A DNA stretch of 64,000 bases. Source: Staphylococcus phage pSco-10. The notes under the pieces were generated by a model. The model ran no database searches and was not told the DNA's origin. It saw nothing but the letters and a program-made list of their open reading frames with translations. The position numbers and the translations under genes were made by a program. Numbering within the stretch: position 1 is the first letter of the stretch; each line of letters starts with the position of its first letter. Below are positions 1 to 15,489 of the stretch, piece by piece. Location: the sequence record KX011028.1; one strand, written 5' to 3'.

Positions 1-50
1 ATCACTCCTACTTACAATATACAATTATTTATATACTCTAAGTAGGAGAA

Positions 51-71
51 GCGGATAAGTACCGCTTCAAC
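51..71 (-). terminator. hairpin GAAGCGG-N7-CCGCTTC just downstream of stop of 79..630; no clear U-run
   Basis: inverted repeat seen in sequence. Confidence 0.3.
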
Positions 72-78
72 TATTATT

Positions 79-630
79 TTAGTACTCTCTTACAAACAAA
101 TCTACTACAGGGTAATACTTTAATAATTTACCACTATCTCTAGTTTCTTCAAATTCTTCACGAACATCTTTTCTATCAATTGGTTTTACCAAACCATGTA
201 CAGCCTGGTAAGTATATCTACGTCCTTTAGAATCTTCAAAGTAACCTTCAGGTGATGCTTCAAGTACATTGAAGTGGTTAAGTACTCCTCCGTCTATATA
301 CCAAAACGTATATCCCATAGGTGCATCTTCTTTCTCTTGCTCATCATCCGCTTCAATCTTCTCTAAGTTTGATACATAATTACTCCAATCAGTTAAGTAT
401 CTACCGTTCCTACTTGTACCTGCTATCTCTACCTTACCACCTTCTAGTACCTTAGTTACAGTAGCCTCTCCTACAGCTCCTCTTTGACTGTCTAGTACTT
501 TTACTCTATCTCCTACTTTAATGTCCTTAGAAGCGGTCTCCGCTTCATCTTTACCCTCTAATAGCTCCTGATACTTTACTAACTCTTCAGGTGTACCTTC
601 TACAATATTATTATCTAAATGTAATTTCAC
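79..630 (-). CDS. hypothetical protein (183 aa), GTG start
   Basis: ORF track; RBS aggagg 8 nt upstream of GTG; consensus promoter upstream (661..689). Confidence 0.55.
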   Translation of the reverse strand: MKLHLDNNIVEGTPEELVKYQELLEGKDEAETASKDIKVGDRVKVLDSQRGAVGEATVTKVLEGGKVEIAGTSRNGRYLTDWSNYVSNLEKIEADDEQEKEDAPMGYTFWYIDGGVLNHFNVLEASPEGYFEDSKGRRYTYQAVHGLVKPIDRKDVREEFEETRDSGKLLKYYPVVDLFVREY

Positions 631-660
631 TATTAACTCCTCCTAATTGATTATATACTA

Positions 661-689
661 AGTATAGCATACCGCTTCATACTTGTCAA
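661..689 (-). promoter_or_regulatory. sigma70-like promoter TTGACA-17-TATACT for gene 79..630; -35 lies inside the inverted repeat ccgcttca-N25-tgaagcgg (673..713)
   Basis: tgtcaa 684..689 and agtata 661..666 on plus strand = TTGACA/TATACT on minus strand. Confidence 0.6.
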
Positions 690-1153
690 CAATTAATTGT
701 AATTGAAGCGGATATATTTCAATATTCTCAATTAAACTTCTTCTATTCTCAGTGCCCTACTTACGATTATAGGTACATTAAAACTTCGGTCTAGGAGATA
801 CCTAATACTTTTTAGTAATTTTAAAAATAAGAATCCCATACCTATAGGGTTCTATAATTTAGTACCACTTTTCCTAGGGTCTAAAGATTAAAACCCTAGA
901 TTAGAATGATTCTAATGTAATAACCTAGATTATACCGCCATTATATGAGATTATTATATAATAACAGTAGATTACTACCGCTTCAGCATAGATTAAGGTC
1001 GGAATACTATAGTTTACTATTGTATAATAAATGAATAGTATAACTATAGAATAAGTATTTAGGAAAGTCGGTAGTAAGTAATAGGCTGAGTAGGAGAGGT
1101 AAAAAAATTCCCAGGTTCTAGGATGATACTATTTTCTCTAAGTATCTTACCTT

Positions 1154-2635
1154 CTATTTTACCTTCTTTCTTTTAGGAGTATACCCATTTATATATTCCC
1201 AATAAAGTTTAGTCCCATCGGGAGCTAAAGTATGTTTTCTTTTACCTCTACATACTTCTCCTATTTTACTTCCTTTAGGTAAATTATAAAAAGATATAGC
1301 ATCTTTAACCCCATCAAACTCTTTACCTGTGTTTAAACATCTTACTGCATTTTTATTACTACTACCTATTTTAACTGGTTGGTACCCTAAATTTCTCTTT
1401 AATATACCTGATACTTTACAAGAAGAAAATCCAGTAGCAAAGCTAATTTGTCTCATAGGTACCCCTTTATTATATAACTCTATTACTTTTAAAACATAAT
1501 CATCTTTACTTTTTATTATATCAAATATCTCTCTATCTTCTACACCTTCAAGTAAAAAAGATAACTTAGATTTAGATATACTTTCTTTGATGTAACTTAG
1601 TTCCGAAATACGACAATCAATCTCTATTAATTCTATATCATTATTTTTGCAATAATCCTTCTTATACTTCATAGATACATTATGTTGCTTTACTGTATTC
1701 CCCCAATTAGTACTATTATTATAATGTTGTCTTCCATGTGTTTCTACTGCTAATTTTTTGTTACCTAAAGTAAATATAAAATCTATTCTCTTTCTGTTAT
1801 CTATTTGTACTTCTGATTCGAAATTTATATTATTTAGCTCTAAGTAAGCAGAGAAAACTTTTTGAGGTAAGGGTGTTTTTTCTGAACAATAAGTACAATT
1901 AAATCCTCTATTTACTAACTTATCTATACTAATATACTTTTTAAAATAACAACCTTTATTGTGACACTTTATCTGTATTTTATTGGGAGACCCTATAGTT
2001 TTGTATTTATCTTCCTCATTAACCAAGTATTTAATTAAATCAGGTCTTTTCCTTTCTATAGAATTAATTAATTTTTTATATTGTTTTGGGAATACAGAAT
2101 TGCTAGTTGATTCTAATAAAGTTTTTTCTTTTACCGTTATCTCTACATTTTTCTCAATGTTTAAAACTTTATAAGATTTCATTCTTCTTCCGCTCTTCTC
2201 CGTATAATAGCAATAATCAATTATTTTACATCCTTTTACAATATCACCTTTAGAGAATCTAAAAGTATTTAAGTATGTTTTATTGAGAGCATTACCTAAA
2301 GCTACCTTCATTAAAGTAATTGATGATACAGAATAATTATCTAATAGTAAATAATTAATATGTTCTTTATTAGTATAACTATATATTAACTTCTTACGAT
2401 ACATTGTACCGTAATTGAAAGTGATATCATGTTCTACATTCTTCCAATCAATACAGTATTTACCTTTATAGAATTTAGTTGGTAAAGTACTTAAATCTAT
2501 CCAATCTATATCTCCATTATTCCTTTGTATATACCATACAAAATCTTTATTGCACTTCTTCTTACCTGTTCTTTCCATTTCTTGTTTAGCCCACTCTACA
2601 TCTACAACACTAGGTACTTCTATATTATTTTCCAT
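1154..2635 (-). CDS. free-standing homing-endonuclease-like protein (493 aa): Vsr/DUF559-like PD-(D/E)XK core (RIDFIF...LAVETHGRQHY) plus C-terminal NUMOD/HTH-like DNA-binding repeats
   Basis: motif recognition in translation; own promoter 2667..2695. Confidence 0.5.
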   Translation of the reverse strand: MENNIEVPSVVDVEWAKQEMERTGKKKCNKDFVWYIQRNNGDIDWIDLSTLPTKFYKGKYCIDWKNVEHDITFNYGTMYRKKLIYSYTNKEHINYLLLDNYSVSSITLMKVALGNALNKTYLNTFRFSKGDIVKGCKIIDYCYYTEKSGRRMKSYKVLNIEKNVEITVKEKTLLESTSNSVFPKQYKKLINSIERKRPDLIKYLVNEEDKYKTIGSPNKIQIKCHNKGCYFKKYISIDKLVNRGFNCTYCSEKTPLPQKVFSAYLELNNINFESEVQIDNRKRIDFIFTLGNKKLAVETHGRQHYNNSTNWGNTVKQHNVSMKYKKDYCKNNDIELIEIDCRISELSYIKESISKSKLSFLLEGVEDREIFDIIKSKDDYVLKVIELYNKGVPMRQISFATGFSSCKVSGILKRNLGYQPVKIGSSNKNAVRCLNTGKEFDGVKDAISFYNLPKGSKIGEVCRGKRKHTLAPDGTKLYWEYINGYTPKRKKVK

Positions 2636-2666
2636 TCCAAATCATCTCCTTATTTAATATACTCTT

Positions 2667-2695
2667 ATTATATAGTAAAACTCTACCTAAGTCAA
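2667..2695 (-). promoter_or_regulatory. promoter TTGACT-17-TATAAT; -35 sits in the loop of terminator hairpin 2681..2704
   Basis: agtcaa 2690..2695, attata 2667..2672 on plus strand. Confidence 0.6.
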
Positions 2696-2704
2696 TAGGT
2701 AGAG
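2675..2704 (-). terminator. rho-independent terminator after gene 2715..3050 (stem CTCTACCT/AGGTAGAG, then TTTTAC)
   Basis: 8-bp perfect inverted repeat followed by U-rich run on minus strand. Confidence 0.5.
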
Positions 2705-2714
2705 TTAAAGTTTT

Positions 2715-3050
2715 TTATTTATTTTCTAATTCTTTTTTAGCATCCATAGCCTTTTCGAACACTTTTAATTTTTTATCGTCTCTTTCTTCTTTAGTAAGGT
2801 CATCATACACTAACTCTGAGAGGAGTGCTACTAATTCAGATAAAGCAGAGCCTTCATTAGCTTTTAAAAGGTCTCTTAAATAAACGTCTTTAGGCATCAT
2901 ACGACCTTCATAATGTGTTAATGTATGGACTACAACTAACTCTTCTTTCCCTTCTTCGTTGTACCCCTTAAGAAGATGACTACTTTCTTGCCTATAACCT
3001 TCTTGTTCTAAACGGTCAATAAATTGTTCTTGTGCAAATACGTTACTCAT
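2715..3050 (-). CDS. hypothetical protein (111 aa; true start MSNVFAQEQF, the track ORF is N-extended)
   Basis: AGGAGAtatt-ATG at 3050; promoter -10 at 3080. Confidence 0.55.
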   Translation of the reverse strand: MSNVFAQEQFIDRLEQEGYRQESSHLLKGYNEEGKEELVVVHTLTHYEGRMMPKDVYLRDLLKANEGSALSELVALLSELVYDDLTKEERDDKKLKVFEKAMDAKKELENK

Positions 3051-3079
3051 AATATCTCCTCCTAATTGATTATATATTA

Positions 3080-3108
3080 ATCTTAACACGTTATTTATCT
3101 GATGTCAA
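3080..3108 (-). promoter_or_regulatory. promoter TTGACA-17-TAAGAT
   Basis: tgtcaa 3103..3108 on plus strand. Confidence 0.55.
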
Positions 3109-3144
3109 CAGTTTTATAAAAAAGTATTTTAACTGATTTCTTTT

Positions 3145-3306
3145 TTATACAAACATCTGTAAAACTAGATGAATAATGAACAAAATAACTCCTGATATTA
3201 CTATACATATACTTACAATACCGTCAAAATAGTCTTGCCTATATCTATAAAATACTATCCCTATTATGATAAAGGTAATTAGTAGGATGTATAATACTAT
3301 GTTCAT
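3145..3306 (-). CDS. small membrane protein (53 aa; start MNIVLYILL)
   Basis: hydrophobic; RBS aagggggaa before ATG at 3306. Confidence 0.45.
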   Translation of the reverse strand: MNIVLYILLITFIIIGIVFYRYRQDYFDGIVSICIVISGVILFIIHLVLQMFV

Positions 3307-3335
3307 AATTAATTCCCCCTTACAAATTTGTGTTT

Positions 3336-3704
3336 TTAATCCTCCCAAACTAAACCTGTTCCTTGTACACGTTCCACTACTTTAAACCACACATATAATT
3401 TCTCAGTTAAAAATAGTTCTAAACTTTTTGCAGTGTCAAACTCTACAGTTTCCGATTCATGAAACCCTTCAGGCAAGTGAACTCTCAGACGTTTCACACC
3501 TTTGTAATAATCGTTGTCTTGAAAAACTTTAGACACTTTTATCTTTATTTCTGAATACAAATATCCAAAATACAATGTTAAACTTGAATTGTGGTGCCCA
3601 ATCCCTAAGTCTTTAAGCACAACCCTCTCACCATTATCTCCTACTAATAACCATTGACCTTTTCTATCTTTAAAATGTCGTACTAATAAATCCATGCTAT
3701 CCAT
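3336..3704 (-). CDS. hypothetical protein (122 aa)
   Basis: ORF track. Confidence 0.5.
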   Translation of the reverse strand: MDSMDLLVRHFKDRKGQWLLVGDNGERVVLKDLGIGHHNSSLTLYFGYLYSEIKIKVSKVFQDNDYYKGVKRLRVHLPEGFHESETVEFDTAKSLELFLTEKLYVWFKVVERVQGTGLVWED

Positions 3705-3735
3705 ACTAATTCCTCCTTATAAAATGTGTGTTTTA

Positions 3736-4515
3736 CTAAACACTAAACTCTTTATTCATTAAATTTTTTACCCAATCCTTATCGTCAACGTTATCAGACT
3801 CTTTTAACCGTGTAAGTATTGTTTGCATGTAAGGTATGGAACAATTATACTCTTCAGCTAACACTTTTACTGTATATGCTTTAAATCTTCTTTTGAAGTT
3901 AATCTCTTTTAAATCAGTTTCTCCTATTAATCTATATGAATTATTTCTCTTCTGATAAGGCTTCTTTCTATGCTGTAGTCCTGAAGACCACGCATGTGAA
4001 ACATTTTCTTCAAAAGGTATTATTTCTAAATTCTTATAGTAACAGTTATTTTTAACTCCATCTATATGGTTAACTACATAATCTTCAGGTATCTTTCCTA
4101 TAAAATGTTCAGCAACAAGTCTATGTACATAGTAGTATTTGTTCTTATACCTAAACCTCAAATATCCTTCATTATGTTTTGATAAACCAACTACTTTCAT
4201 TGGTGATGTTAATGTCGGTAATTTGATAACATCACCATAATTAGATAGATAGTACTCATTATCTGATTCACTAGCAAAACACAGTCTTTTCCATTCCTTT
4301 TTAGGGTCTAATAAGTTATCACAACTAAATAATTGAATAAGTGACTCATATTTGATTACTCTTGATTGTTTCAAGTTGTCAGGATAACACTGATATCCCT
4401 TTTTGTTTTTATTATATCGTACTTTAGCAAGTGTATTATCTTTCTTTACTCGGTACAATACTAAATCATTATCTAAGTAATAATTACTAAATCCATATTT
4501 TTCTAAATTAATCAT
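3736..4515 (-). CDS. free-standing HNH homing endonuclease (259 aa); HNH motif NHIDGVKNNCYYKNLE plus C-terminal HTH-like tail
   Basis: HNH_3-type motif in translation. Confidence 0.7.
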   Translation of the reverse strand: MINLEKYGFSNYYLDNDLVLYRVKKDNTLAKVRYNKNKKGYQCYPDNLKQSRVIKYESLIQLFSCDNLLDPKKEWKRLCFASESDNEYYLSNYGDVIKLPTLTSPMKVVGLSKHNEGYLRFRYKNKYYYVHRLVAEHFIGKIPEDYVVNHIDGVKNNCYYKNLEIIPFEENVSHAWSSGLQHRKKPYQKRNNSYRLIGETDLKEINFKRRFKAYTVKVLAEEYNCSIPYMQTILTRLKESDNVDDKDWVKNLMNKEFSV

Positions 4516-4573
4516 TCCTAAAACAACTCCTTATTAATAAAATGATTCTTTTAATTTGTTAGGGTTGTCTAAA

Positions 4574-4768
4574 TTATTTATTAGCCTTATCTAACGCTAA
4601 CATTAGTTCAGTCATTACATCTCTCTTTTCAAAATCAGATATTGGTAAATCAAGATACCCTTTAATAATCTTATGTGCTTGAACGTAACCTAAATCTTCA
4701 ATACCTTCCGATTTACTTACTACCTCATTTGCTTTATCATGTAAATTTTTAATTTGTTTGTTATTCAT
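4574..4768 (-). CDS. hypothetical protein (64 aa)
   Basis: RBS aaggagagg before ATG. Confidence 0.5.
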   Translation of the reverse strand: MNNKQIKNLHDKANEVVSKSEGIEDLGYVQAHKIIKGYLDLPISDFEKRDVMTELMLALDKANK

Positions 4769-4797
4769 GTTAACCTCTCCTTTTTCTTTATATCTAA

Positions 4798-4826
4798 AGT
4801 ATATTATAATAAATACCTGCTGTCAA
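4798..4826 (-). promoter_or_regulatory. promoter TTGACA-17-TATACT (the -35 lies in the palindrome cctgCTGTCAACAgg)
   Basis: tgtcaa 4821..4826, agtata 4798..4803 on plus strand. Confidence 0.6.
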
Positions 4827-4845
4827 CAGGTATTTATAAACTTAT

Positions 4846-5352
4846 TTATTTTTTCGTAATACCTATAATATCATCAAAGCTATATGCAATCTTACCCTCT
4901 ACATCATAACCTACATTAATGTGATACTCTGTATCCATTAACTGTGAGTGTATATGACCATGAATATTAAACATGTTTTTTCTACCTATTAGTGTAGGGT
5001 AATGGCTTAAATAAAATCTCTTACCTTCCTTTTTAATCATATCTACATATTTTACTGTAATACCGTTACGTTCATATATCCTTATAAGTTTCTTATGGTC
5101 ATGGTTGCCTGCAATCAGTATCATTTCTTTATAGTTTAATCTATTAAGTATATCTTCTACTTTAGAAGGTTTCATATTGAAAAAGAAGTCTCCAATATTA
5201 TAAACAATATCGTTATTTGTAATTGTATTATTCCATAACTCAATTAAACCCTCATTCATTTCTTCTACTGAGTGCCAATGACTCCTTGTAGGTGCTTCAA
5301 ATTCCCTAATATTATCATGACCAAAATGTAAATCACTAACAAAATAAATCAT
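4846..5352 (-). CDS. calcineurin-like metallophosphoesterase (168 aa); motifs DLHFGHD, GDFFF, GNHDH
   Basis: phosphoesterase signature motifs. Confidence 0.75.
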   Translation of the reverse strand: MIYFVSDLHFGHDNIREFEAPTRSHWHSVEEMNEGLIELWNNTITNNDIVYNIGDFFFNMKPSKVEDILNRLNYKEMILIAGNHDHKKLIRIYERNGITVKYVDMIKKEGKRFYLSHYPTLIGRKNMFNIHGHIHSQLMDTEYHINVGYDVEGKIAYSFDDIIGITKK

Positions 5353-5354
5353 TT

Positions 5355-5762
5355 TTATTCCTCCTTATTAAGCTCAATTAATGTATAAAGCCCTTCTCTA
5401 TCTAATTTGTATGAAAGTAATATCATGTTCTCTATATGACCTCCGAAAGGGGTTAAACCTTTCACATCAGAAACATCTACAGATGTTAGTTCTAAGTCAT
5501 ACATTTTTTGTAATGTATCTATAACTGTACTTTTACTTGCACTTATTATTATTTTATTTGATTCTTTATGAATTAAAGCATATTTACTTTCAACATAACC
5601 TGTGTGACCTAACTGTCTCCCTGGTTCCTGAATACCGAAAGATTCTCGTTCTTCTCTTAGCTCTTTTTTCTTTTTCCTTGCTTCTAGTACTTTAGTAATG
5701 CCAAGACCAATTAAACATAATATTAGTAGTATTGACCCTAAAACAAAATATACAATTACCAT
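5355..5762 (-). CDS. membrane-anchored protein (135 aa; N-terminal TM then KKKKELREERE)
   Basis: hydrophobic N-terminus. Confidence 0.5.
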   Translation of the reverse strand: MVIVYFVLGSILLILCLIGLGITKVLEARKKKKELREERESFGIQEPGRQLGHTGYVESKYALIHKESNKIIISASKSTVIDTLQKMYDLELTSVDVSDVKGLTPFGGHIENMILLSYKLDREGLYTLIELNKEE

Positions 5763-6067
5763 TATTGACTCATCTCCTCTAAATAATCATCTAAGATGCT
5801 TATGCCATAGGCATCTCCTTTTTCATAGTAGTGAACATCAGTATATGATTTACTCAGTAATCCTACAACTAAGCCATTGTTTGTCTTACTGAACTGTCTT
5901 AAGTTATACTCATACATATTATTATCTTCAAGTAAAACGATATCGTTATCGACTAATGTACCTTCCGTAGTATAAGATAACCCTTTTGCTGTTGTGTTAA
6001 TGAATTCTAAAAGCTCCTTTAGGATGTGTTTATTTTCTTCTTTATAAAATATAATAATCCCTTTCAT
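5762..6067 (-). CDS. hypothetical protein (101 aa)
   Basis: RBS aaggaggttaact before ATG; promoter 6097..6125. Confidence 0.55.
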   Translation of the reverse strand: MKGIIIFYKEENKHILKELLEFINTTAKGLSYTTEGTLVDNDIVLLEDNNMYEYNLRQFSKTNNGLVVGLLSKSYTDVHYYEKGDAYGISILDDYLEEMSQ

Positions 6068-6096
6068 AAGTTAACCTCCTTATTTCTTATACTCTT

Positions 6097-6125
6097 AGTA
6101 TATAATAAAAGAAACCTAGTGTCAA
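6097..6125 (-). promoter_or_regulatory. promoter TTGACA-17-TATACT; -35 lies in the loop of terminator hairpin 6111..6133
   Basis: tgtcaa 6120..6125 on plus strand. Confidence 0.6.
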
Positions 6126-6133
6126 TAGGTTTC
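6105..6133 (-). terminator. terminator hairpin GAAACCTA/TAGGTTTC followed by TTTTATTAT
   Basis: inverted repeat plus U-run on minus strand. Confidence 0.5.
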
Positions 6134-6144
6134 TTAAACTTTTT

Positions 6145-6810
6145 TTATAATGAAATTGGTTCTACAATACTCTCTAAGGTATTAGTTAAATGACCTAATC
6201 CATCATACGTAATATCTGTTTTAATAATACGATTAATAAGAGTACCTTCAGAATTTTGTAACTTAGTATCTATAACATGTTTACCTTCATCCTTAGCGTA
6301 TTCAATAACAATTAAGTATCCCTCAGGTAAATGTATACTTACTTTTCTTCTTTGAATGAGCATATTTCGGTCACTGATAGTAAAACTACCTACTTTAAGA
6401 CCGCTTGATAATTCTGCAATGATTCCTGGTAATTTGTCTTCCTGCTGAGTACCAACTAATTGTAGTTGTAACCAATTATAATACTCTTCTGTAGCTTTGA
6501 TATATAAATTATCTAAAAACTCCACAACAGACTCTTCTGAAGTTTCAAAATCATCAGGTATAGTATCATGAGTTACGGTACTGTCAGTTGTAACAATAAC
6601 TTCACCATTAGCTAGCACAACAATTGAACTGGCTACCCCTAGCTTTTCATTTTCTACATAGAATATAATTCCTTCTTCATCAGTAAGGCTATCTTTGAAT
6701 GATTGGCAGTCTTTATTACCTGTAAAGGATATCTTAGCCTTTTTAGGGCACCCACCAATTTCTTCTTGCTCATTAATAATTTTTTCCCATTCTTTTAAAT
6801 CAATACTCAT
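6145..6810 (-). CDS. hypothetical protein (221 aa)
   Basis: ORF track. Confidence 0.55.
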   Translation of the reverse strand: MSIDLKEWEKIINEQEEIGGCPKKAKISFTGNKDCQSFKDSLTDEEGIIFYVENEKLGVASSIVVLANGEVIVTTDSTVTHDTIPDDFETSEESVVEFLDNLYIKATEEYYNWLQLQLVGTQQEDKLPGIIAELSSGLKVGSFTISDRNMLIQRRKVSIHLPEGYLIVIEYAKDEGKHVIDTKLQNSEGTLINRIIKTDITYDGLGHLTNTLESIVEPISL

Positions 6811-6826
6811 TTTTTTCTTAAACCCC

Positions 6827-7099
6827 TTATTTATTATTTGTATTCATAAATCTTTTAAGGTCTCCAGTTTCAAAAGTACCTATTTTGATATCTTTAACTT
6901 CTTTACGTTCTTGCTCTTCTAAGTAAAGAATACCTAATGAGTTAGCTGTTGTAGCTATCATTCTTGTAATTTGCCCTGTATTATAATCCTTTTGTTTAAC
7001 TTTACCTTTTTTATATCTAACTAATTCTACAATATCTAAAGCCAAAATTAAAAAGTTATTTACCTTTAATGTTAAAATTTTCTTTTGCCTACTGTTCAT
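6827..7099 (-). CDS. hypothetical protein (90 aa)
   Basis: ORF track. Confidence 0.5.
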   Translation of the reverse strand: MNSRQKKILTLKVNNFLILALDIVELVRYKKGKVKQKDYNTGQITRMIATTANSLGILYLEEQERKEVKDIKIGTFETGDLKRFMNTNNK

Positions 7100-7110
7100 C
7101 TTTTTTCCTC

Positions 7111-7341
7111 CTATTTATTTAAGAATTTTTTAGCGTAAATCCACAAACCAATACATGCTATAATAGCCATTAAAACAATAGTTATAGTAATGTACATAGC
7201 TTCAGTATCTGATATTAAGTCAGGTTCCCAATTGTGTGCTATCGTTTCTTCTCTAGTTTCTGTATTACCACTTGTAGTGGTAGTAGGGCTAGTAGTTGTT
7301 GGATTACTTACAACAGGAACATGAGGTACCGTTACCGGCAT
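7111..7341 (-). CDS. small membrane protein with Thr/Pro-rich N-terminus (76 aa)
   Basis: C-terminal TM helix. Confidence 0.5.
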   Translation of the reverse strand: MPVTVPHVPVVSNPTTTSPTTTTSGNTETREETIAHNWEPDLISDTEAMYITITIVLMAIIACIGLWIYAKKFLNK

Positions 7342-7342
7342 A

Positions 7343-7753
7343 TTAATTTCCCCCTTTAGCCTGTTCGATTAAATCTTTTACTGCAAATACTTCAGGGTTC
7401 AATATTTTTAGAATATCCATAGGTATTCCATATACTAAGTAAAGAAATGCACCTAGAGATATGATTGATGTAACTATTACATAGGTCAAACCTAAACCTG
7501 ATAAATCTTCATAATCGTCAAATAGTAAGCTATAATCATCATCTCTATCTGTGTCATTTACCTTTTTATACTGATTAATGAGTATCTTCCATAAAAACAC
7601 AGTTAATGCTATGATTAGAATACCTACTATAATGTCTACAATACCATATACAATTTGATACTTTACTAATGCTTCCCAAGCATGTTGGCTAATATCACCT
7701 AACTTACCTCCAAGGGAATCAATTCTCTCTAACACTTTATCTTCTAATTTCAC
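7343..7753 (-). CDS. membrane protein (about 137 aa; GTG start MKLEDKV, the track ORF is N-extended)
   Basis: RBS aaggag 8 nt before GTG; two TM segments. Confidence 0.5.
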   Translation of the reverse strand: MKLEDKVLERIDSLGGKLGDISQHAWEALVKYQIVYGIVDIIVGILIIALTVFLWKILINQYKKVNDTDRDDDYSLLFDDYEDLSGLGLTYVIVTSIISLGAFLYLVYGIPMDILKILNPEVFAVKDLIEQAKGGN

Positions 7754-7769
7754 TACAAACACTCCTTTT

Positions 7770-7844
7770 TTAGTCCTCTGAATTATAACCGCTAACAAAA
7801 CCTAATACAAATAATACTGCTAGAATAAAAATTACGAATAACAT
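7770..7844 (-). CDS. 24-aa hydrophobic micro-ORF (MLFVIFILAVLFVLGFVSGYNSED); its stop overlaps the RBS of the next gene
   Basis: RBS gaggagg 8 nt before ATG, directly downstream of promoter 7876..7904; missed by the 60-aa cutoff. Confidence 0.35.
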   Translation of the reverse strand: MLFVIFILAVLFVLGFVSGYNSED

Positions 7845-7875
7845 AGGTCATACCTCCTCTTTATTTGTTAACTTA

Positions 7876-7904
7876 AGTATAACCTATATACACTCATTTG
7901 TCAA
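7876..7904 (-). promoter_or_regulatory. promoter TTGACA-17-TATACT with AT-rich UP-like region upstream
   Basis: tgtcaa 7899..7904 on plus strand. Confidence 0.6.
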
Positions 7905-7949
7905 CAGTTATTTATTCTTTTTATCAAATTTATTTTAAAAAATTTTATA

Positions 7950-8129
7950 CTATATAATTCCTAACCATAATAGTATATTCGGTAATGCTGATAAACTTAA
8001 AAGTACTACTGAAAACGATACTAACTTCAAATATTCTTTCAAGCCATCAAAACCACATAAAATTAACGGAACTACCAAAGAGTATACTATAATTATTAAT
8101 ATTGTAATTAAAATAGGTGTTATTAGCAT
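7950..8129 (-). CDS. small two-TM membrane protein (59 aa, MLITPILITILIIIVYSL...)
   Basis: RBS aaggagag before ATG; missed by track cutoff. Confidence 0.45.
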   Translation of the reverse strand: MLITPILITILIIIVYSLVVPLILCGFDGLKEYLKLVSFSVVLLSLSALPNILLWLGII

Positions 8130-8134
8130 TCTTA

Positions 8135-8311
8135 TCTCTCCTTATCAAATTGTTTTGTTGTTGCAATTTTATACTCTTTATCAGGGTTTCTTTCCTCTAA
8201 TCTATCTTTTAACTCTTCTAATACTGAAATATCTCTATGTGCTCTAACTTGCCTAGGGATTTTCTTTTTACCTACTTTATCATAATAACATAATGCATAC
8301 CATTCAGACAT
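8135..8311 (-). CDS. small basic protein (58 aa, MSEWYALCYYDKVGKKK...)
   Basis: ATG immediately follows the TAG stop of the upstream gene (translational coupling); missed by track. Confidence 0.4.
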
Positions 8312-8740
8312 CTACTTCACTAATCCTTTCTCTTTAGTCCATATTAACGTATGTGTACCATCATCATTTACCGTGTGTAGCGTTTCTACGGGCTCTTCAT
8401 GTGCTTCTGCTTTATTCAACATAAGTTTTATTGGGTAGTTTTCGTCAATTCTCACACGCTGATAACCAAAATCATCCTTTAAATACGTCTTTTTAAAAGT
8501 TGTCATTAGCTTAGGTATAACTGTATCTTCCGTAATTTCTTCCTCGACTTCGGCTTCGAAAATGACGTTTTTAGAAATACGCCAGTCTGATGAAAACTCT
8601 CCTTTATCATTAATGCTAATAGAGACTACATAACCTTTTTCATCATGTCCTCTAAATGATAAATTTCTCACATCGTTATCCCACGCCCACTCAATCAACT
8701 GTGGTAAGTTTAGTTGTTTCTTAGTTTTGATTTTTACCAT
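8312..8740 (-). CDS. hypothetical protein (142 aa)
   Basis: ORF track. Confidence 0.55.
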   Translation of the reverse strand: MVKIKTKKQLNLPQLIEWAWDNDVRNLSFRGHDEKGYVVSISINDKGEFSSDWRISKNVIFEAEVEEEITEDTVIPKLMTTFKKTYLKDDFGYQRVRIDENYPIKLMLNKAEAHEEPVETLHTVNDDGTHTLIWTKEKGLVK

Positions 8741-9090
8741 TATTTCTCCTCCTTCTGTAACTTCTTATCTAAAGTTACGCTATAATCCTCTTTATAAAAT
8801 CCTTTAATTTTACCTTTATACCCTCTAGCATGTTTAACATATTTGTAAACTGTACCTACAAATTGAATTCTTTTACCTTGTAATTCTTTTAGTTTTTCGT
8901 AGAATGAAATACCTACTTCAATATTAACATGGTCAATAGGTATACCGTTAATACTTACATTAGTAACAGTTATTCTCACACAACCATGTTGATTGCCTTT
9001 ATGTCTTCTACGCTTTGAATACTTAACATCATCTAAGTACCCTTTAACATTAACTTGCTTTCTGTTAAAAGGTTTTAATTCATCTCTCAT
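8740..9090 (-). CDS. hypothetical basic protein (116 aa)
   Basis: ORF track. Confidence 0.5.
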   Translation of the reverse strand: MRDELKPFNRKQVNVKGYLDDVKYSKRRRHKGNQHGCVRITVTNVSINGIPIDHVNIEVGISFYEKLKELQGKRIQFVGTVYKYVKHARGYKGKIKGFYKEDYSVTLDKKLQKEEK

Positions 9091-9104
9091 AAGTTCACCT
9101 CCAA

Positions 9105-9410
9105 TTATAATTGTAATTCATGATAGTTAAACATGTCACGAACTACCTTCTTAGCAAAGTAATTAACCATGTACTGTGTTGAAGCTCCTTCAAGTTTATC
9201 ATAATCAAAGTCAATACATGTGAAAACTACAAAGCTTCCTAAGTTTCTACTACCTTCTCTAACTTCAAATACAAGTGTATCATTTTTAAAAGATTTAATT
9301 TTAAACTCTTTATTTGTATTAAAACTTTTAGGGAAGTTCCACCATTCCTTAGTTGTTGCCATAATCTCAATTGCATTTGAAAATTGTCTTCTGATTGTTT
9401 CTTTACTCAT
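9105..9410 (-). CDS. hypothetical protein (about 101 aa; start MSKETIRR)
   Basis: ggagatgattattATG context shared with other genes. Confidence 0.5.
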   Translation of the reverse strand: MSKETIRRQFSNAIEIMATTKEWWNFPKSFNTNKEFKIKSFKNDTLVFEVREGSRNLGSFVVFTCIDFDYDKLEGASTQYMVNYFAKKVVRDMFNYHELQL

Positions 9411-9441
9411 AATAATCATCTCCTGTACTTGTTATACATAT

Positions 9442-9470
9442 AGTATAATACAAAAGTTTAGAAGTGTCAA
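9442..9470 (-). promoter_or_regulatory. promoter TTGACA-17-TATACT
   Basis: tgtcaa 9465..9470 on plus strand. Confidence 0.6.
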
Positions 9471-9479
9471 CACTTATTT

Positions 9480-9767
9480 TTAAGAAAATACAAGAAGATT
9501 TACTACCATTCCGAGTGTACATAATAATGAAGCACCTGAGTATATTAAGGATTCCTTATCATCTCTACCTTTTCTAGCTAAGAGTAAGAAAATTAGCATA
9601 CCTGCTTGTAGTAAAAAGAACCACCCATAAAAACCTGCCCAAATATTTAGTAATATTGCAATACCTGTTAATATATAGCTCGTATCATCATTAAGTAAGT
9701 CAATGATAACGACAGCTATAAAGGCAACAGAAGCTATTGTCATTAAGTCCATAGGCGTTAATCCCAA
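9480..9767 (-). CDS. polytopic small membrane protein (95 aa)
   Basis: hydrophobic. Confidence 0.5.
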   Translation of the reverse strand: MGLTPMDLMTIASVAFIAVVIIDLLNDDTSYILTGIAILLNIWAGFYGWFFLLQAGMLIFLLLARKGRDDKESLIYSGASLLCTLGMVVNLLVFS

Positions 9768-10105
9768 TTCCAGTCTTCCATCATAAAATCAATGTAAGCT
9801 TGGTTTTCCTCATCTGTAATTTGGTCTTTAACCACTTCTATTTCTGAAATAACAAATTGTAAAGAATCTGTTAATCTACCAATAGCAATACGTTCTGTTG
9901 TTTTAATAGGTAAACGTCCTGAGTGAGGGTGAACTAAGTTATCAATAACCTCTACTGCTTTAATGTCACCACTTACAATTTTAATATCTCCCTCATCAAA
10001 AAATACCTTACTTGATTCTCCTGTACTTGCGCTTAGTAAACTTGCAATACTATTAATCATATACACTTTCGTATCTTCTAAATTTTTTAGTTTTTCATTT
10101 AACAT
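9758..10105 (-). CDS. hypothetical protein (115 aa)
   Basis: ORF track. Confidence 0.5.
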   Translation of the reverse strand: MLNEKLKNLEDTKVYMINSIASLLSASTGESSKVFFDEGDIKIVSGDIKAVEVIDNLVHPHSGRLPIKTTERIAIGRLTDSLQFVISEIEVVKDQITDEENQAYIDFMMEDWNWD

Positions 10106-10117
10106 TTTATTTCCTCC

Positions 10118-10444
10118 TTATAAGTCTATTGATAAATCTTCATTTAAATCTTCCATAGCATCTAATAAATCTGAATGTTTATATAACATGTCTACTGAGT
10201 TATCAATATCCCAACTTATACCATCATGTATATCTAAGTATGAATAAGGTATATCTATAATTAGTTTTGTATGTTCCATAGTTTCATACACATTATATAC
10301 ATCATGGAATCCTGTACCTTGCTTAGCAATAACTATATTATAGTCTTTAAATTTCTCTATATTCTCTTCAGTAAGTTTTGGAATTGTTTCTTTTAAAACT
10401 CTTTGATTTGTATCTTTATAGTGAACAATCAGTATATCAATCAT
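10118..10444 (-). CDS. hypothetical acidic protein (108 aa)
   Basis: ORF track. Confidence 0.5.
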   Translation of the reverse strand: MIDILIVHYKDTNQRVLKETIPKLTEENIEKFKDYNIVIAKQGTGFHDVYNVYETMEHTKLIIDIPYSYLDIHDGISWDIDNSVDMLYKHSDLLDAMEDLNEDLSIDL

Positions 10445-10458
10445 CTAGTATTCCTCCT

Positions 10459-10641
10459 TTAGTATAGGTATACTACTGTCATAGCATTATGGATAGATTT
10501 CATAATCCAAAATAAGAATAGTAATACTGCTCCTGCTCCAATAACTCCTGGCATCCATCTATCTTTCCAAAACTCAACACCAAGCATAACCACAAAGTAA
10601 GATACAAATCCCCATATAAACCATAAAATTCCTAATAACAT
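10459..10641 (-). CDS. small membrane protein (about 60 aa)
   Basis: hydrophobic; promoter 10686..10714. Confidence 0.5.
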   Translation of the reverse strand: MLLGILWFIWGFVSYFVVMLGVEFWKDRWMPGVIGAGAVLLFLFWIMKSIHNAMTVVYLY

Positions 10642-10685
10642 AATAATCATTCCTCTTTTCTTTTTTTTATTTTATTTATACTCTT

Positions 10686-10714
10686 AGTATACATTAAAAG
10701 GATGAATCTGTCAA
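10686..10714 (-). promoter_or_regulatory. promoter TTGACA-17-TATACT; -35 lies in the loop of hairpin 10691..10725
   Basis: tgtcaa 10709..10714 on plus strand. Confidence 0.55.
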
Positions 10715-10990
10715 CCCTTTAATGTAAAGTTTTTTATTAAAATATTCTAAAGCTTTTTGAGCTGTTGATACTTCTTTAGTAAACTCCCTAAGTTCTTTCA
10801 TATCAAGCTCTTCTGAACCTACACGCATTACAAGCTCTACACCTTCTCGACCATTATCAAATATGATAGGTGAGAATTTTGTTTTATTTTTCTTCCCTAC
10901 CTCAGTAACAATAATATTACCTGCTAGTCTTACAACTATAGTATAATCTTTGTACTTATCTTTGTAAAGTACATTTGTTTCTTTAGTCAT
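10694..10990 (-). CDS. hypothetical protein (98 aa)
   Basis: ORF track. Confidence 0.5.
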   Translation of the reverse strand: MTKETNVLYKDKYKDYTIVVRLAGNIIVTEVGKKNKTKFSPIIFDNGREGVELVMRVGSEELDMKELREFTKEVSTAQKALEYFNKKLYIKGLTDSSF

Positions 10991-11158
10991 TTCTTTTTCT
11001 CCTTAAATCCATATATAATGATTTCTTTCTTAATTCTTCTAACTTCTTTTGTCTCTCTTCAATAGGTATAGAAGAAGGTATTTTATTATCTACCTTCTTC
11101 TTTTGTTTAGGTTTACCTACTCTATCTGATTCACTGTTTATAAAATCATTAAAATCCA
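10983..11158 (-). CDS. hypothetical protein (about 58 aa; start MDFNDFINSE, the track ORF is over-extended into the upstream gene)
   Basis: RBS aaggag before ATG at 11158. Confidence 0.45.
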
Positions 11159-11170
11159 TAATAAAACTCC

Positions 11171-11419
11171 TTATAATAAAATATTGTTTACTAATAACAC
11201 TAATAAGAATAGGATAACTCCAAACACAATTGTAATGATAGCTCCTATTATCATAGAGCAAGCTTTTATATCTAGAGTAGTTTTACTTAGTAGTAACATC
11301 ATTAGTTTATCTAATAGAATAAATACACCTTTAAATACTAAATAAAGTATTCCCATAGCTACTGCAAAAGCTACAATAATATATATTACAAGTAATACAC
11401 TGTCAAATGAACTTAACAT
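11171..11419 (-). CDS. small membrane protein (82 aa)
   Basis: hydrophobic. Confidence 0.5.
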   Translation of the reverse strand: MLSSFDSVLLVIYIIVAFAVAMGILYLVFKGVFILLDKLMMLLLSKTTLDIKACSMIIGAIITIVFGVILFLLVLLVNNILL

Positions 11420-11435
11420 TGGTTCCTAACCTCCT

Positions 11436-12080
11436 TTAATTACTATTGTATTGTTTATATTCTTCTAAATCTTCTTGTTTTCTAATTTCACTTTCTTTAT
11501 CTAGTTTCTTTAATTTTTTGTACTCAGAGATAGTTAAAGGTCTATTAGTTAATAGTTGATTCTTCCAATGATTTATATCTTCAGGTCTTTTTACTTCAGC
11601 TTGGAAAGCCCACGATATATTTGTCTCTTTAACTTCTTCTCCATTATCTCGTTTATAATAAAATTCTTTAACCTCTAATAAATCTAAATACCACTTACTA
11701 TAATACTTATAATCTTTTTCTCCAGGTAATCTCAAATAGTAAGAATTATTCCATTCAGTATATTCCCATATAGGAAATACAGATTTAAATATTAGTATAG
11801 GTATTAAAGCTGATAGGACACCATATACAATGATAATAACAAGTAGCATACTTATTATTTTTACTAAAGTACTATCTGTTAAATCTTTGATAATACCTCC
11901 AAGAATTAATGCTAATGCTATAGCTATGATATTATTTATTACGACTACACTAAGGTATATTAATTCTCCTAATGTTCTACCTTCAGGACTAGACCTTAAC
12001 TCAGACCAACTTATCTTATCCATTTTAGTATTAGATTTATTCTCTAGGTAGCTCTGTTTTACTTCTTCTGAAACTTTCAT
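11436..12080 (-). CDS. membrane protein (214 aa)
   Basis: TM segments; promoter 12109..12137. Confidence 0.55.
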   Translation of the reverse strand: MKVSEEVKQSYLENKSNTKMDKISWSELRSSPEGRTLGELIYLSVVVINNIIAIALALILGGIIKDLTDSTLVKIISMLLVIIIVYGVLSALIPILIFKSVFPIWEYTEWNNSYYLRLPGEKDYKYYSKWYLDLLEVKEFYYKRDNGEEVKETNISWAFQAEVKRPEDINHWKNQLLTNRPLTISEYKKLKKLDKESEIRKQEDLEEYKQYNSN

Positions 12081-12108
12081 AATAATTCCTCCTTTTCTGT
12101 ATAATATT

Positions 12109-12137
12109 ACTATACACTATATAAAACGATTTGTCAA
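12109..12137 (-). promoter_or_regulatory. promoter TTGACA-17-TATAGT
   Basis: tgtcaa 12132..12137 on plus strand. Confidence 0.6.
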
Positions 12138-12164
12138 TAAAAAAGCTAACAAATTAATGTTAGC
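12138..12164 (-). terminator. terminator AGCTAAC/GTTAGCT followed by a U6 run
   Basis: 7-bp stem then TTTTTT on minus strand, immediately followed by TTGACA. Confidence 0.55.
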
Positions 12165-12372
12165 TTGATTGGTTTACTTTATGCTCCTTAATAGAAAAAG
12201 CTACACGTTTTCCATCTTTTGTTTCTACTTGGTTTTCCTTAACAAATCTCTCCGCTAACTGTTGAGTTGAAAAGTAAAATGATTCTCGGTTAGAACTTCC
12301 TTCTGTTGGTGTCGTAATTACAGTCTTTACAATAACTTCGTATACACTAAACTTTGGTAATGATTTATCCAT
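12160..12372 (-). CDS. hypothetical protein (about 70 aa)
   Basis: RBS aaagggga before ATG at 12372. Confidence 0.5.
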   Translation of the reverse strand: MDKSLPKFSVYEVIVKTVITTPTEGSSNRESFYFSTQQLAERFVKENQVETKDGKRVAFSIKEHKVNQSS

Positions 12373-12385
12373 AATAAATTCCCCT

Positions 12386-12637
12386 TTACTCATTTTCTTT
12401 ATCCTTAATGGCTTGGGCTACTGCGTCATTTACTACTCGTACCATAATTCTATGTGCTGTTCTGATAATCAAGAATCCTATTCCTAAGAAAGTAGCTAAT
12501 ACAAACGGGTCAATCGTAGCATGAGTTATAAGAATAACTAAGCTAGCTACTCCGTAAAAGAATAAAAACCCTACTGTATAAATTAATGTTACTACTAATA
12601 AATTAAATAAGTACACTCCGATAAATTTACTCACCAT
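12386..12637 (-). CDS. small membrane protein (83 aa, GTG start)
   Basis: hydrophobic. Confidence 0.45.
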   Translation of the reverse strand: MVSKFIGVYLFNLLVVTLIYTVGFLFFYGVASLVILITHATIDPFVLATFLGIGFLIIRTAHRIMVRVVNDAVAQAIKDKENE

Positions 12638-12803
12638 ATCTCTCCTCTTCTAGCAAATTAGTAACGTATTCATTATTTTGTTCTAATTCTTGGATGTAAT
12701 CAAAAGCTAATTCTAACATTTTACTTTCACTGATGTGACCTTGCTTATAATACTCTAACTCGTTCTTAAATTTGTCTTGTGATTTAATACTAGGTATAAC
12801 CAT
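12627..12803 (-). CDS. hypothetical protein (58 aa, MVIPSIKSQDKFKNELEYYKQGH...); its stop overlaps the GTG of the next gene
   Basis: RBS ggaggaa before ATG at 12803; promoter 12827..12855; missed by track. Confidence 0.45.
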   Translation of the reverse strand: MVIPSIKSQDKFKNELEYYKQGHISESKMLELAFDYIQELEQNNEYVTNLLEEERYGE

Positions 12804-12826
12804 AATATCTTTCCTCCTTTAATAAT

Positions 12827-12855
12827 ACTATACTACATTTATTTGTTCTTGTCAA
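12827..12855 (-). promoter_or_regulatory. promoter TTGACA-17-TATAGT located inside the 3' end of gene 12839..13396
   Basis: tgtcaa 12850..12855 on plus strand. Confidence 0.55.
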
Positions 12856-13396
12856 CAGTTTCTTTATCTTTTTTAAAAAGTTCTTTAGATAATTTAGTAT
12901 GGTGCTCTACTGCCTTATTATACTTCATATACTTAAAGTGAAGTATATTTATCTCACTGAATGTAATTTGTCTTAACTTATGCTTAGCTACTATATCTAC
13001 TTCATCATTAGGATACTTAAATATCTTAGCCTGGTTCTGCTCAGCATTACTCAATTCCCAATACATCTTTATACTTCCTCTGTAAGACACTATTTTATTC
13101 ATCTTACTTACTTTCCAAGTTCCTAGTGCTAAAACAAACATAATAATCACTGCAGGAGCTAAAGATGAGTAAACAGCATTACCTGTTACAAAATACTCAA
13201 TAATACGTAGAATCATAAGAATAAAGAAACTTATAATTAATCCTACCATAACTGAATCTAATACCTTTGTAGATACGTAGTTACGTGTTCCTTTAGAACG
13301 TATAATATCCTTATAATCGTCTACTTCTTTTAGTCTAATTTGAATATCTCTATTAGCCTCTTCAATCTCTTTAACTAATTTTTCCCTTTCTGTCAT
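12839..13396 (-). CDS. membrane protein (185 aa)
   Basis: TM segments. Confidence 0.55.
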   Translation of the reverse strand: MTEREKLVKEIEEANRDIQIRLKEVDDYKDIIRSKGTRNYVSTKVLDSVMVGLIISFFILMILRIIEYFVTGNAVYSSLAPAVIIMFVLALGTWKVSKMNKIVSYRGSIKMYWELSNAEQNQAKIFKYPNDEVDIVAKHKLRQITFSEINILHFKYMKYNKAVEHHTKLSKELFKKDKETVDKNK

Positions 13397-13400
13397 TGCC

Positions 13401-13643
13401 CTATCTCCTTTGATTTATTTGAGCTATCGACTTAAGTAAGAATTTATAATTTCTTTTAAAGTTTTTTGCTTCGAGCTTACCGAATTTACTTTGGATACGT
13501 TTTTTAGCTTTGTGAGCCGTACCTCCTTCCAGTATCGGGTTTAGTAAATCTACACTTAACTCTAGTACTCTCTCCTCTGAAAGCTCATCATCTGAAACTA
13601 GCCTTACAAATGCATCAAATCTTTCTAAATCTTCCATTTCCAT
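13401..13643 (-). CDS. hypothetical protein (about 80 aa; start MEMEDLERF)
   Basis: RBS ggaaggagag before ATG; the track's N-extension runs into the terminator. Confidence 0.5.
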   Translation of the reverse strand: MEMEDLERFDAFVRLVSDDELSEERVLELSVDLLNPILEGGTAHKAKKRIQSKFGKLEAKNFKRNYKFLLKSIAQINQRR

Positions 13644-13668
13644 AATTAATCTCTCCTTCCTATATATT

Positions 13669-13697
13669 AATATACCACAAAACAAAAAAAGAGTCAA
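13669..13697 (-). promoter_or_regulatory. promoter TTGACT-17-TATATT; -35 is the 3' arm of terminator 13684..13712
   Basis: agtcaa 13692..13697 on plus strand. Confidence 0.55.
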
Positions 13698-13712
13698 GAA
13701 TTAACTTGACTC
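13684..13712 (-). terminator. terminator GAGTCAAG/CTTGACTC followed by a U7 run (the palindrome also carries TTGACT on both strands)
   Basis: perfect 8-bp inverted repeat plus TTTTTTTGTTTTG on minus strand. Confidence 0.6.
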
Positions 13713-13792
13713 AATCACTATTCCATAAGTAATAAATGATAGCAATAAAGATGACAACAATAAGTACTGTCATTTTTAGTCACCCCCTCTTA

Positions 13793-14200
13793 TTACTTTT
13801 CGGTTGGTACTGCCTCAAACCTATACTTATGAGTTGGATTATCTTCACCATCTTCAGTATATACCCTAATAAGCTTGAAATTTACCCCTTCTTTAAATCT
13901 ACTTGTTTTGTAGTACCTCATATCTATGCTGTTATCTCCTGTTCTACCTGGGAGGTAAGTAGGTAATGTTTCCATAAAATAAGCCTTATTATCCTTAACC
14001 TCTTTCAATGTATAGTCACCAACAAATTCTACATTCTTTTCTTCTTTAATCTTTCCTGTGTTTGATAACTCAGTAGAGACTTGATTTTTTGCTTTGTCGT
14101 GATACATGAAAGAAGATATATAATAAGATGAGATAGAAAAAGCCAAAACAATAATCACTAGTACATAAAATATACTTGCTTTTTTTGACATAACTAACAC
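13793..14200 (-). CDS. N-terminally membrane-anchored protein (135 aa)
   Basis: signal/TM segment. Confidence 0.55.
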   Translation of the reverse strand: MLVMSKKASIFYVLVIIVLAFSISSYYISSFMYHDKAKNQVSTELSNTGKIKEEKNVEFVGDYTLKEVKDNKAYFMETLPTYLPGRTGDNSIDMRYYKTSRFKEGVNFKLIRVYTEDGEDNPTHKYRFEAVPTEK

Positions 14201-14205
14201 CTCTA

Positions 14206-14248
14206 TACAAAAAATGTCTCCTCTTACAGTTATAATATAAGAGGAGAC
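14206..14248 (-). terminator. terminator with 11-bp stem GTCTCCTCTTA/TAAGAGGAGAC followed by ATTTTTTG
   Basis: long perfect inverted repeat plus U-run. Confidence 0.6.
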
Positions 14249-14254
14249 TAATTA

Positions 14255-14965: not shown

Positions 14966-14981
14966 ATTATAACCTCTTTAC

Positions 14982-15425: not shown

Positions 15426-15458
15426 AATTGTTAGCTCCTTTATTTTTAGTATACATAT

Positions 15459-15487: not shown

Positions 15488-15489
15488 CC

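Follow-up and report, generated by a model that had tools for sequence, protein, structure and literature searches.

Clusters of host Chi sites near a genome end have been described for the lambdoid phage LLS and for Pseudomonas phage MD8, in which the sites are terminally clustered and oriented. They were proposed to recruit host recombination for concatemer formation, and the same study describes Chi-rich lambdoid phages that lack a recombination module (Zheng et al., Genome Res 2025, PMC12315714). For large staphylococcal phages, the closest described features are the long terminal repeat (LTR) of the Kayvirus phages K, G1, ISP, 812 and Staph1N, and the DNA that anchors the phage 812 genome in its portal. 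In 812, a member of Kayvirus, the left end is packaged first and remains portal-bound, LTR position 1 staying around the portal as a ring of ~120 bp, and the right end is ejected first. The anchor DNA makes one turn per portal monomer, with a minor-groove contact that disfavours G/C; the paper names no sequence determinant (Commun Biol 2026, PMC12886913). Here we describe a 523-bp gap between genes (positions 631..1153) in a stretch of 64,000 nucleotides from Staphylococcus phage pSco-10 (sequence record KX011028.1), the whole of which we call the window. By homology the gap is the left end of the LTR of this phage, and a GC-rich word repeated in it, which had been flagged in an earlier note, has the host Chi sequence as its core. 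We consider it probable, judging from the distribution of this word, that a Chi array confined to the LTR tames the host AddAB enzyme at the genome ends and steers LTR-by-LTR recombination, with the gap serving as the leader of the repeat.

A megablast search with window positions 1-3200 returned 251 matching records, every one a Staphylococcus phage, the closest being PG-2021_35 at 95% identity; the matches that were examined belong to the Herelleviridae, subfamily Twortvirinae. The GC content of the window is about 30%. Because the open reading frames (ORFs) near the gap lie on the minus strand and the GC skew is negative across the whole window, the window is the reverse complement of the customary Twortvirinae map. 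The gap is flanked by a 183-aa ORF (79..630(-)) and a 493-aa ORF (1154..2635(-)) and, as the earlier note had stated, is free of any real ORF, the only frames in 631..1153 being mechanical ones of 29-35 aa. Read on the minus strand, window positions 1111 to ~640 are collinear with nucleotides 1-485 of phage K (KF766114), that is, up to the first gene of K, whose sequence opens with GGAATTCTTTTACCTCTC and has GGAATTC at position 1. The right-LTR starts of Staph1N (Lobocka's annotation), fGPyoSau01 (PhageTerm) and J-Sa36 (read coverage from next-generation sequencing) all fall on window 1111 (query position 50), and in Stab22 and Stab23 the similarity to the window ends at the edge of the annotated terminal repeats.

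The boundary words were compared as well. In phage K, the left boundary reads TAAGTACCTG/GG and the right boundary CC/CAGGTACTTA, the slash marking the boundary, which together form a 12-bp inverted pair. The corresponding word in the window, CTAGAACCTG/GG, agrees with the left boundary of K at 9 of 12 positions and differs from it at the other 3. Lobocka et al. reportedly described, in 2012, 12-bp inverted LTR boundary words TAAGTACCTGGG ... CCCAGGTACTTA, and both are present in the phage K sequence. From the collinearity with K and the mapped LTR starts it follows that the gap is composed of 42 bp of unique DNA and a 472-bp non-coding leader at the left end of the LTR, homologous from position 1 to LTRs whose ends have been determined. 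The window holds one LTR copy only (1.1 kb, next to 62.9 kb of unique DNA), and the right boundary lies outside it; in PG-2021_35, no CCTGGG-type word was found at the expected place of the right boundary. The earlier note had listed a lack of conservation among homologous phages as one refutation of its reading, and this one does not hold: the region is kept in some 200 phage records, with coverage of at least 80% in 205 of the 247 matching records.

The LTR leader itself is a genome feature that was already known. The boundary position, the first promoter and the presence of an LTR gene downstream are the same here as in the Kayvirus LTR, and the end that anchors phage 812 in its portal is, by homology, the same genome end. 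Besides the boundary word, the differences lie in the genes on either side: the first LTR gene encodes a 183-aa protein of phrog_16491, a family of unknown function, and not treA, and at the boundary a homing-endonuclease-like gene stands where K-like phages have bofR. What matters, on the sequence comparisons given below, is that the flagged GC-rich word is the host Chi and that it is confined to the LTR across genera.

The flagged 9-mer, ACCGCTTCA, is present three times, as had been reported, although each position is about one base away from the earlier coordinates (61-69, 671-679 and 977-985). It consists of CCGCTTC, the complement of GAAGCGG, with one flanking base on either side. GAAGCGG is the Chi sequence of the S. 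aureus AddAB/RexAB enzyme according to passages in PMC8022716, PMC11442139 and bioRxiv 10.1101/2021.07.08.451572, which cite Halpern 2007, and in that species AddAB and Chi are active at free DNA ends (PMC8860600). On the strength of this identity, we assign the core of the 9-mer to the host Chi sequence, 5'-GAAGCGG-3', with high confidence. The heptamer of the bacterial chromosome is identical, is strand-biased and, as here, often stands in frame as GAA-GCG-G. The 9-mer has 3 matches in the window where 0.06 are expected, and the core, CCGCTTC/GAAGCGG, has 8 where 0.78 are expected; neither count was reached in any of 100 shuffles, which bears out the view that the repeats exceed background. 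The exact heptamer is found at all eight sites. They all lie within 48..984, inside the 1.1 kb of LTR, and none lies in the 62.9 kb of unique DNA.

Six of the eight copies form inverted pairs (48/62, 530/540 and 672/705), and the copies at 348 and 978 are single. The inverted partners named in the earlier note are real and lie at 48-54 and 705-711, among the plus-strand copies of GAAGCGG; the pair at 530-536/540-546, inside the gene, had been missed. Nine phages, including K, PM25, P108, RODI, PG-2021_35, Stab22 and Stab23, were aligned over the leader. The first Chi copy of the leader (978..984) is present in seven of the nine and is replaced in PG-2021_35 and Stab23. These two share a single replacement, CTAATGTACC (alignment columns ~230-242, window 975-990), and differ elsewhere; the shared segment suggests a mosaic exchange within the leader.

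The same confinement is seen in other genomes. Phage K has 20 Chi copies per 8,486-bp LTR (13 on the top strand and 7 on the bottom strand) and 0 in 131,345 bp of unique DNA. In Twort, which belongs to another genus, all 15 copies fall in 88,424..96,009 (~7.6 kb) of the 130,706-bp genome, with 0 in the remaining ~123 kb. In PG-2021_35, ~9.7 kb hold 29 copies and the other ~21 kb a single one; Stab22 and Stab23 have 19 and 14, respectively, all in the annotated LTR, with 0 in the ~4 kb sampled outside. The S. capitis phage S2G3 has 19 copies in 2,113..12,296 and 0 in the rest of 18.9 kb, and phiSA_BS1 (Baoshanvirus) has 10 in 15,307..26,315 and 0 in the rest of 28 kb. In a scan of all 7-mers for LTR enrichment that assumed no particular word, GAAGCGG/CCGCTTC ranked first in K (p 5e-25), Twort (p 2e-17) and PG-2021_35 (p 3e-27). 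The GC content of the K LTR (0.297) is close to that of its unique DNA (0.305).

Across the 102 Chi sites compared, there are 96 different contexts, and conservation does not extend past the heptamer. Its flanks show no preference other than 'not C' directly before it and T or A directly after it, and spacing and orientation vary among the sites. As the contexts are distinct in 96 of 102 cases, selection would act on the heptamer itself and not on a duplicated module. In the relatives, the copies are spread over the entire 8-12-kb terminal repeat, inside genes, in terminator-like hairpins and around promoters. Of the 20 copies in phage K, 9 are inside genes, and 7 of the 8 coding top-strand copies are in frame as GAA-GCG-G. 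One of the three sources cited above for the heptamer gives 335 Chi sites in 2.82 Mb of host chromosome, or ~0.12 per kb. The LTR carries 2.4-3 per kb, some 20-25 times the density of the host chromosome, with the sites limited to 6-8% of the phage genome; host-derived DNA therefore cannot explain the LTR copies. By these counts, an array of 15-30 Chi copies confined to the LTR is a property of staphylococcal Twortvirinae. We found no paper joining Chi or AddAB with Kayvirus, Twort-like phages or terminal repeats in a literature search that did not cover the main review of Twort-like genomics, so that an earlier mention is possible.

The array resembles those of LLS and MD8 in that many host Chi copies lie near a genome end with an orientation bias that fits entry of a helicase-nuclease from that end. 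It differs in its Gram-positive host, whose enzyme is AddAB/RexAB and whose Chi is a 7-mer, and in its phages, which are strictly virulent myophages of 130-150 kb (Herelleviridae). Further differences are the restriction of Chi to a duplicated terminal repeat, the 120-130 kb of unique DNA in K and Twort being free of it, and the presence of both orientations at about 2:1; many copies are moreover built into promoters and hairpins. AddAB shares the Chi polarity of RecBCD. By the rule given for RecBCD, 5'-Chi-3' on the top strand is active for an enzyme that enters from the right end (PMC12315714). The copy at 978..984 is in this orientation, and in the right-hand LTR copy no other Chi of this kind lies between it and the inner edge; the plus-strand copy at 705-711 has the orientation that is active against entry from the left end. 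In the window, the copies active from the left (GAAGCGG on the window plus strand) are 400, 575 and 1,057 bp from the end, and in phage K the distance to the first active Chi is ~410 bp at the left end and ~560 bp at the right. Chi is both the 7-mer most enriched in the LTR in three phages and strand-biased, with a top-to-bottom ratio of 61:33 (p 0.005), which rises to 38:10 among unpaired copies (p 6e-5). The commoner orientation would face the more exposed end, which in 812 is ejected first; this agrees with the function proposed below but is confounded with gene direction.

The function that we infer for the array is as follows. The double-strand ends of the linear genome would be exposed to AddAB, which would load on an injected end and degrade it. 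With Chi packed into the repeat in both orientations, the enzyme would meet a correctly oriented copy within ~400-560 bp of either end. There it would cease degradation and produce a RecA-loaded 3' tail while still inside the LTR, and this tail could pair with the other LTR copy, the sole homologous partner in a single infection. The outcome would be protection of the ends together with LTR-by-LTR recombination that yields circles or concatemers. Unique DNA has no homologous partner in a single infection, so Chi would be useless there and hence absent. The excess of top-strand copies would suit the right-end-first ejection polarity of 812. Many copies may do double duty, as stems of terminator-like hairpins or by filling free positions around the -35 box.

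Several observations weigh against this role for Chi. These phages encode, according to their annotations, a UvsX/RecA-like recombinase and an SbcCD-like nuclease of their own, which breaks the lambdoid rule of many Chi sites without a recombination module. The identity of Chi is that of S. aureus, and the hosts of this particular phage are coagulase-negative. The strand bias cannot be separated from the direction in which the LTR is transcribed, nor from coding in frame as GAA-GCG-G. Furthermore, -35 boxes flanked by a Chi pair are found repeatedly, with the pair in either arrangement, which leaves room for a role in transcription.

The last point is the core of an alternative in which a transcription regulator of the phage or the host recognises GAAGCGG as a half-site and switches the host-takeover genes of the LTR on or off, the pair at the -35 box being its operator. 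The earlier note had placed this box between copies of the 9-mer, and it is indeed so bracketed, in TTGACA-17-TATACT at 689..661(-). This sigma-70-type promoter lies ahead of AGGAGG and the GTG codon at which the 183-aa ORF begins, and its homologue in phage ISP carries the annotation 'putative Staphylococcus-specific promoter'. Its spacer contains a top-strand GAAGCGG (678..672), and the complement of Chi lies upstream, giving an inverted pair, CCGCTTCA-N24-TGAAGCGG, around the -35 box that is invariant in the nine phages. The whole module, ATCCGCTTCAATTACAATTAATTGTTGACA....ATGAAGCGG.TATG.TA, is nearly invariant in all nine, even where the remaining leader is replaced. A second LTR promoter in PG-2021_35 likewise has a Chi pair around TTGACA, and the distribution of the motif coincides with the early-gene block. 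An operator for a dimeric repressor would nevertheless be expected to look different, with half-sites at a constant distance and only at promoters under its control: a dyad is present at the -35 box, but the two members of a pair are anywhere from 3 to ~44 nt apart, in both arrangements, with no consensus past seven bases, and about half of the sites are unpaired or intragenic, many of them in frame in coding sequence. The seven bases are exactly the host Chi, a coincidence of about 1 in 8000 for an unrelated site. We therefore regard a regulator half-site as unlikely. The proposal of a regulator site at an early promoter holds for the promoter; the 9-mer is the host Chi heptamer spread over the whole LTR, and not a local operator or iteron.

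The part of the leader toward the genome end is of a different character. The nine-phage alignment falls into zones: no similarity outside the boundary, a block of ~215 bp, a middle part and the nearly invariant promoter module. The terminal block is the sole part of the leader before the promoter module that is common to all nine phages, its invariant runs begin exactly at the boundary, and it contains an 11-nt inverted repeat (1004-1014/1042-1052). The middle is kept among K-like phages and is absent from Stab22 and Stab23. The block contains a phased array of AATCT, at LTR positions ~117-226. Four copies at 21-bp spacing (994..927, minus strand) are unique in the window and arose in 0 of 100 shuffles; TAATCTA as a word has no window-wide enrichment. 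From 931 to 889 is 42 bp, with AATCA at 911 near the missing register. All nine phages keep the AATCT core of units 1, 3 and 4 unchanged, and RODI has one extra in-register unit of 21 bp. Six such units amount to 126 bp (12 helical turns), a length that would match the 12-turn portal ring of 812. The 10.5-bp periodicity of G/C is strongest at 888-1013 among all 126-bp windows of the 64 kb (power 7.3; next peak 6.7). Against this stands the homologous segment of K, in which the G/C phasing is just at the 99.2nd percentile; the phasing is unremarkable in K and Twort.

Such an array could also be read as origin iterons, with replication starting at the genome end. Iterons would be expected to look like these four to six direct repeats, which keep a 21-bp register, are conserved across phages and are extended in one phage by a further in-register unit. 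However, just 5-7 bases per unit are conserved, no DnaA box was found in the leader, and no initiator gene adjoins it; and since the portal of 812 binds this end, there is an alternative reason for phased contacts. An origin is, in our judgement, rather improbable. Because the leader lacks a DnaA box and a nearby initiator gene, a packaging-start or anchoring role is more likely than an origin for the array. As to a possible pac-type site, the left end is the one packaged first in 812, conservation begins at the cut site, and the repeats are phased. By homology to the left end of 812, the terminal block together with the array is most likely the packaging-start and portal-anchoring end. Where the earlier note had offered an origin or a packaging-type element, the packaging part fits the left physical end of the genome, which 812 packages first, and the origin part finds neither DnaA box nor adjacent initiator. 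Taken as a whole, its reading is partly supported.

The other repeats listed for this part of the leader are all present, although they carry little weight as signals. The direct repeat CCTAGATTA (at 895 and 924) and the palindrome TTAGAATGATTCTAA (901-915) sit inside the AATCT array, and CTAGGGT/ACCCTAG forms an inverted repeat at 874-880/892-898. CCTAGATTA has 4 matches in the window against 1.14 expected, a count reached in 3 of 100 shuffles, and CTAG is only ~2-fold denser than in the rest of the window; neither is significant, and richness in CTAG or CCTAGG was set aside as a signal. The CTAGGGT/ACCCTAG hairpin is stable here (-13.1 kcal/mol, z -2.7) but is not conserved, with uncompensated mismatches in K, PM25 and P108. 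Separately, CCCTAGG/CCTAGGG is a second, independent LTR-specific word in phage K, with 7 copies in the LTR (at 234, 317, 318, 564, 1458, 2985 and 4875) and 0 in unique DNA (p 3e-9); no enrichment of it was found in the phage of the window or in PG-2021_35.

Two further explanations of the repeats fare worse. If the heptamers were mere stems of terminator or RNA-stabilising hairpins, spread by module duplication within the LTR, one would expect stable hairpins of the form GAAGCGG-loop-CCGCTTC, and these exist: the pairs 530/540 and 48/62 fold with -10.3 and -13.3 kcal/mol (z -3.3 and -5.1). In PG-2021_35, several such hairpins are followed by T-runs, and one site scores as terminator-like. But 51 of the 102 sites have no partner and another 18 stand in the 'wrong' order (CCGCTTC...GAAGCGG), the diversity of contexts does not fit copies of a single module, and a hairpin role does not need an identical stem in Kayvirus, Twortvirus and Baoshanvirus. 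This makes the hairpin explanation very unlikely. Chance matches in AT-rich intergenic DNA, which would suffice for CCTAGATTA and the CTAG richness taken by themselves, have next to no chance of accounting for the eight copies of CCGCTTC or the phased AATCT, given the shuffles and the replication of the Chi pattern in independent genera.

Table 1. Features of the LTR left end and its surroundings in the 64-kb window of phage pSco-10 (positions and strand are those of the window).
Feature	Position	Strand	Basis
Unique-DNA tail, 42 bp, from the stop of the homing-endonuclease-like ORF to the LTR boundary	1112..1153	-	Nine-phage alignment: phages dissimilar upstream of the boundary word
LTR boundary word CTAGAACCTG/GG; first LTR base = 1111	1110..1121	-	K position 1, K boundary words, three mapped LTR starts
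Conserved terminal block, ~215 bp, first DNA of the LTR	895..1111	-	Nine-phage alignment; collinear with K nucleotides 1-~215
Phased AATCT(A) array: 994, 973, 952, 931 (exact 21-bp steps), then 902, 889	885..994	-	Register test
Chi copy 1 of the leader, GAAGCGG on the genome top strand	978..984	-	Heptamer search
Variable leader middle, with the arm CTAGGGT (874-880)	720..880	-	Nine-phage alignment
Predicted first early LTR promoter: -35 TTGACA (689..684), 17-nt spacer, -10 TATACT (666..661)	661..713	-	11/12 match, TG extension
Start of the first LTR gene: predicted ribosome-binding site AGGAGG (644..639), GTG codon (630..628)	628..644	-	ORF list, K comparison, PHROG match
Five further Chi heptamers beyond the gap: pairs 530-536/540-546 (in gene) and 48-54/62-68 (downstream of gene), single 348-354	48..546		Heptamer search

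A few observations concern the surroundings of the boundary. A hairpin followed by a T-run at the boundary (1123..1109) was considered as a terminator and rejected, its stability being no better than that of shuffles (z -0.25). No Rfam family was found in the region, the sole match being a chance miRNA (E = 0.22, 20 bits against a gathering score of 60 bits), and neither flanking ORF (79..630, 1154..2635) contains a Pfam domain. The boundary word GTACCTGGG recurs once in K at 42562, inside the large terminase gene (41,926..43,743); for a 9-mer in 148 kb, this may be chance. In Twort (NC_007021), a non-coding stretch of 746 bp at ~87,480..88,260, directly upstream of the Chi cluster, holds two direct copies of AACCCCAGAACTTTTTC ~360 bp apart. 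In its letters this word is similar to the boundary words of K-like phages, which are of the CCCAGG(T/A)AC type, and it could mark the edge of the Twort LTR.

The 493-aa ORF adjoining the boundary matches phrog_4538 and is homing-endonuclease-like, with weaker matches to PHROGs of homing or intron-encoded nucleases. A mobile nuclease gene appears to have been inserted directly beside the packaging cut site, a place taken by small bofR-type genes in K-like phages. Within 3 kb of the LTR boundary there is also a candidate HNH-like ORF of 259 aa (3736..4515(-)), whose motif, VNHIDGVKNNCYYKNLEI, was seen in the translation alone; it would be a second free-standing nuclease gene.

Phage SPO1 (NC_011421) was considered for a comparable pattern. 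The Chi sequence of B. subtilis is AGCGG. In the 50 kb of the SPO1 genome examined, AGCGG occurs 3.5 times per kb in the terminal redundancy (1..13185) and 1.09 times per kb in 13186..50000, so that the terminal redundancy is 3.2-fold denser in it than the 37 kb that follow (p 9e-8). GAGCG, an overlapping word of matched composition, is likewise enriched (4.5-fold), hinting at GAGCGG as a longer motif.

We tentatively extend the proposal for the Chi array further: the LTRs of staphylococcal Twortvirinae, and perhaps of Herelleviridae generally, could be Chi traps, in which selection would have gathered host Chi in precisely the sequence repeated at the two ends, and which turn AddAB/RexAB from a destroyer of the genome into a starter of recombination, and the array of six 21-bp units may wrap once around the 12-subunit portal. 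If this is true, the k-mer most enriched in the LTR of such a phage would reveal the Chi of its host genus, and the density of AGCGG in SPO1 is a first hint that host Chi might be read computationally from phage terminal repeats. The pattern of Chi in the LTR would also offer a handle on how SPO1-like genomes of the LTR type are protected and become concatemers, and Chi-dense ends should restrict AddAB-dependent CRISPR spacer acquisition to the last few hundred bp. Phage therapy of Staphylococcus aureus relies mainly on phages of the Kayvirus type, and RexAB inhibitors have been proposed as antibiotic adjuvants; if the phages rely on the Chi copies of their LTRs to withstand RexAB or put it to use, such inhibitors and phages would interact, synergistically or antagonistically.

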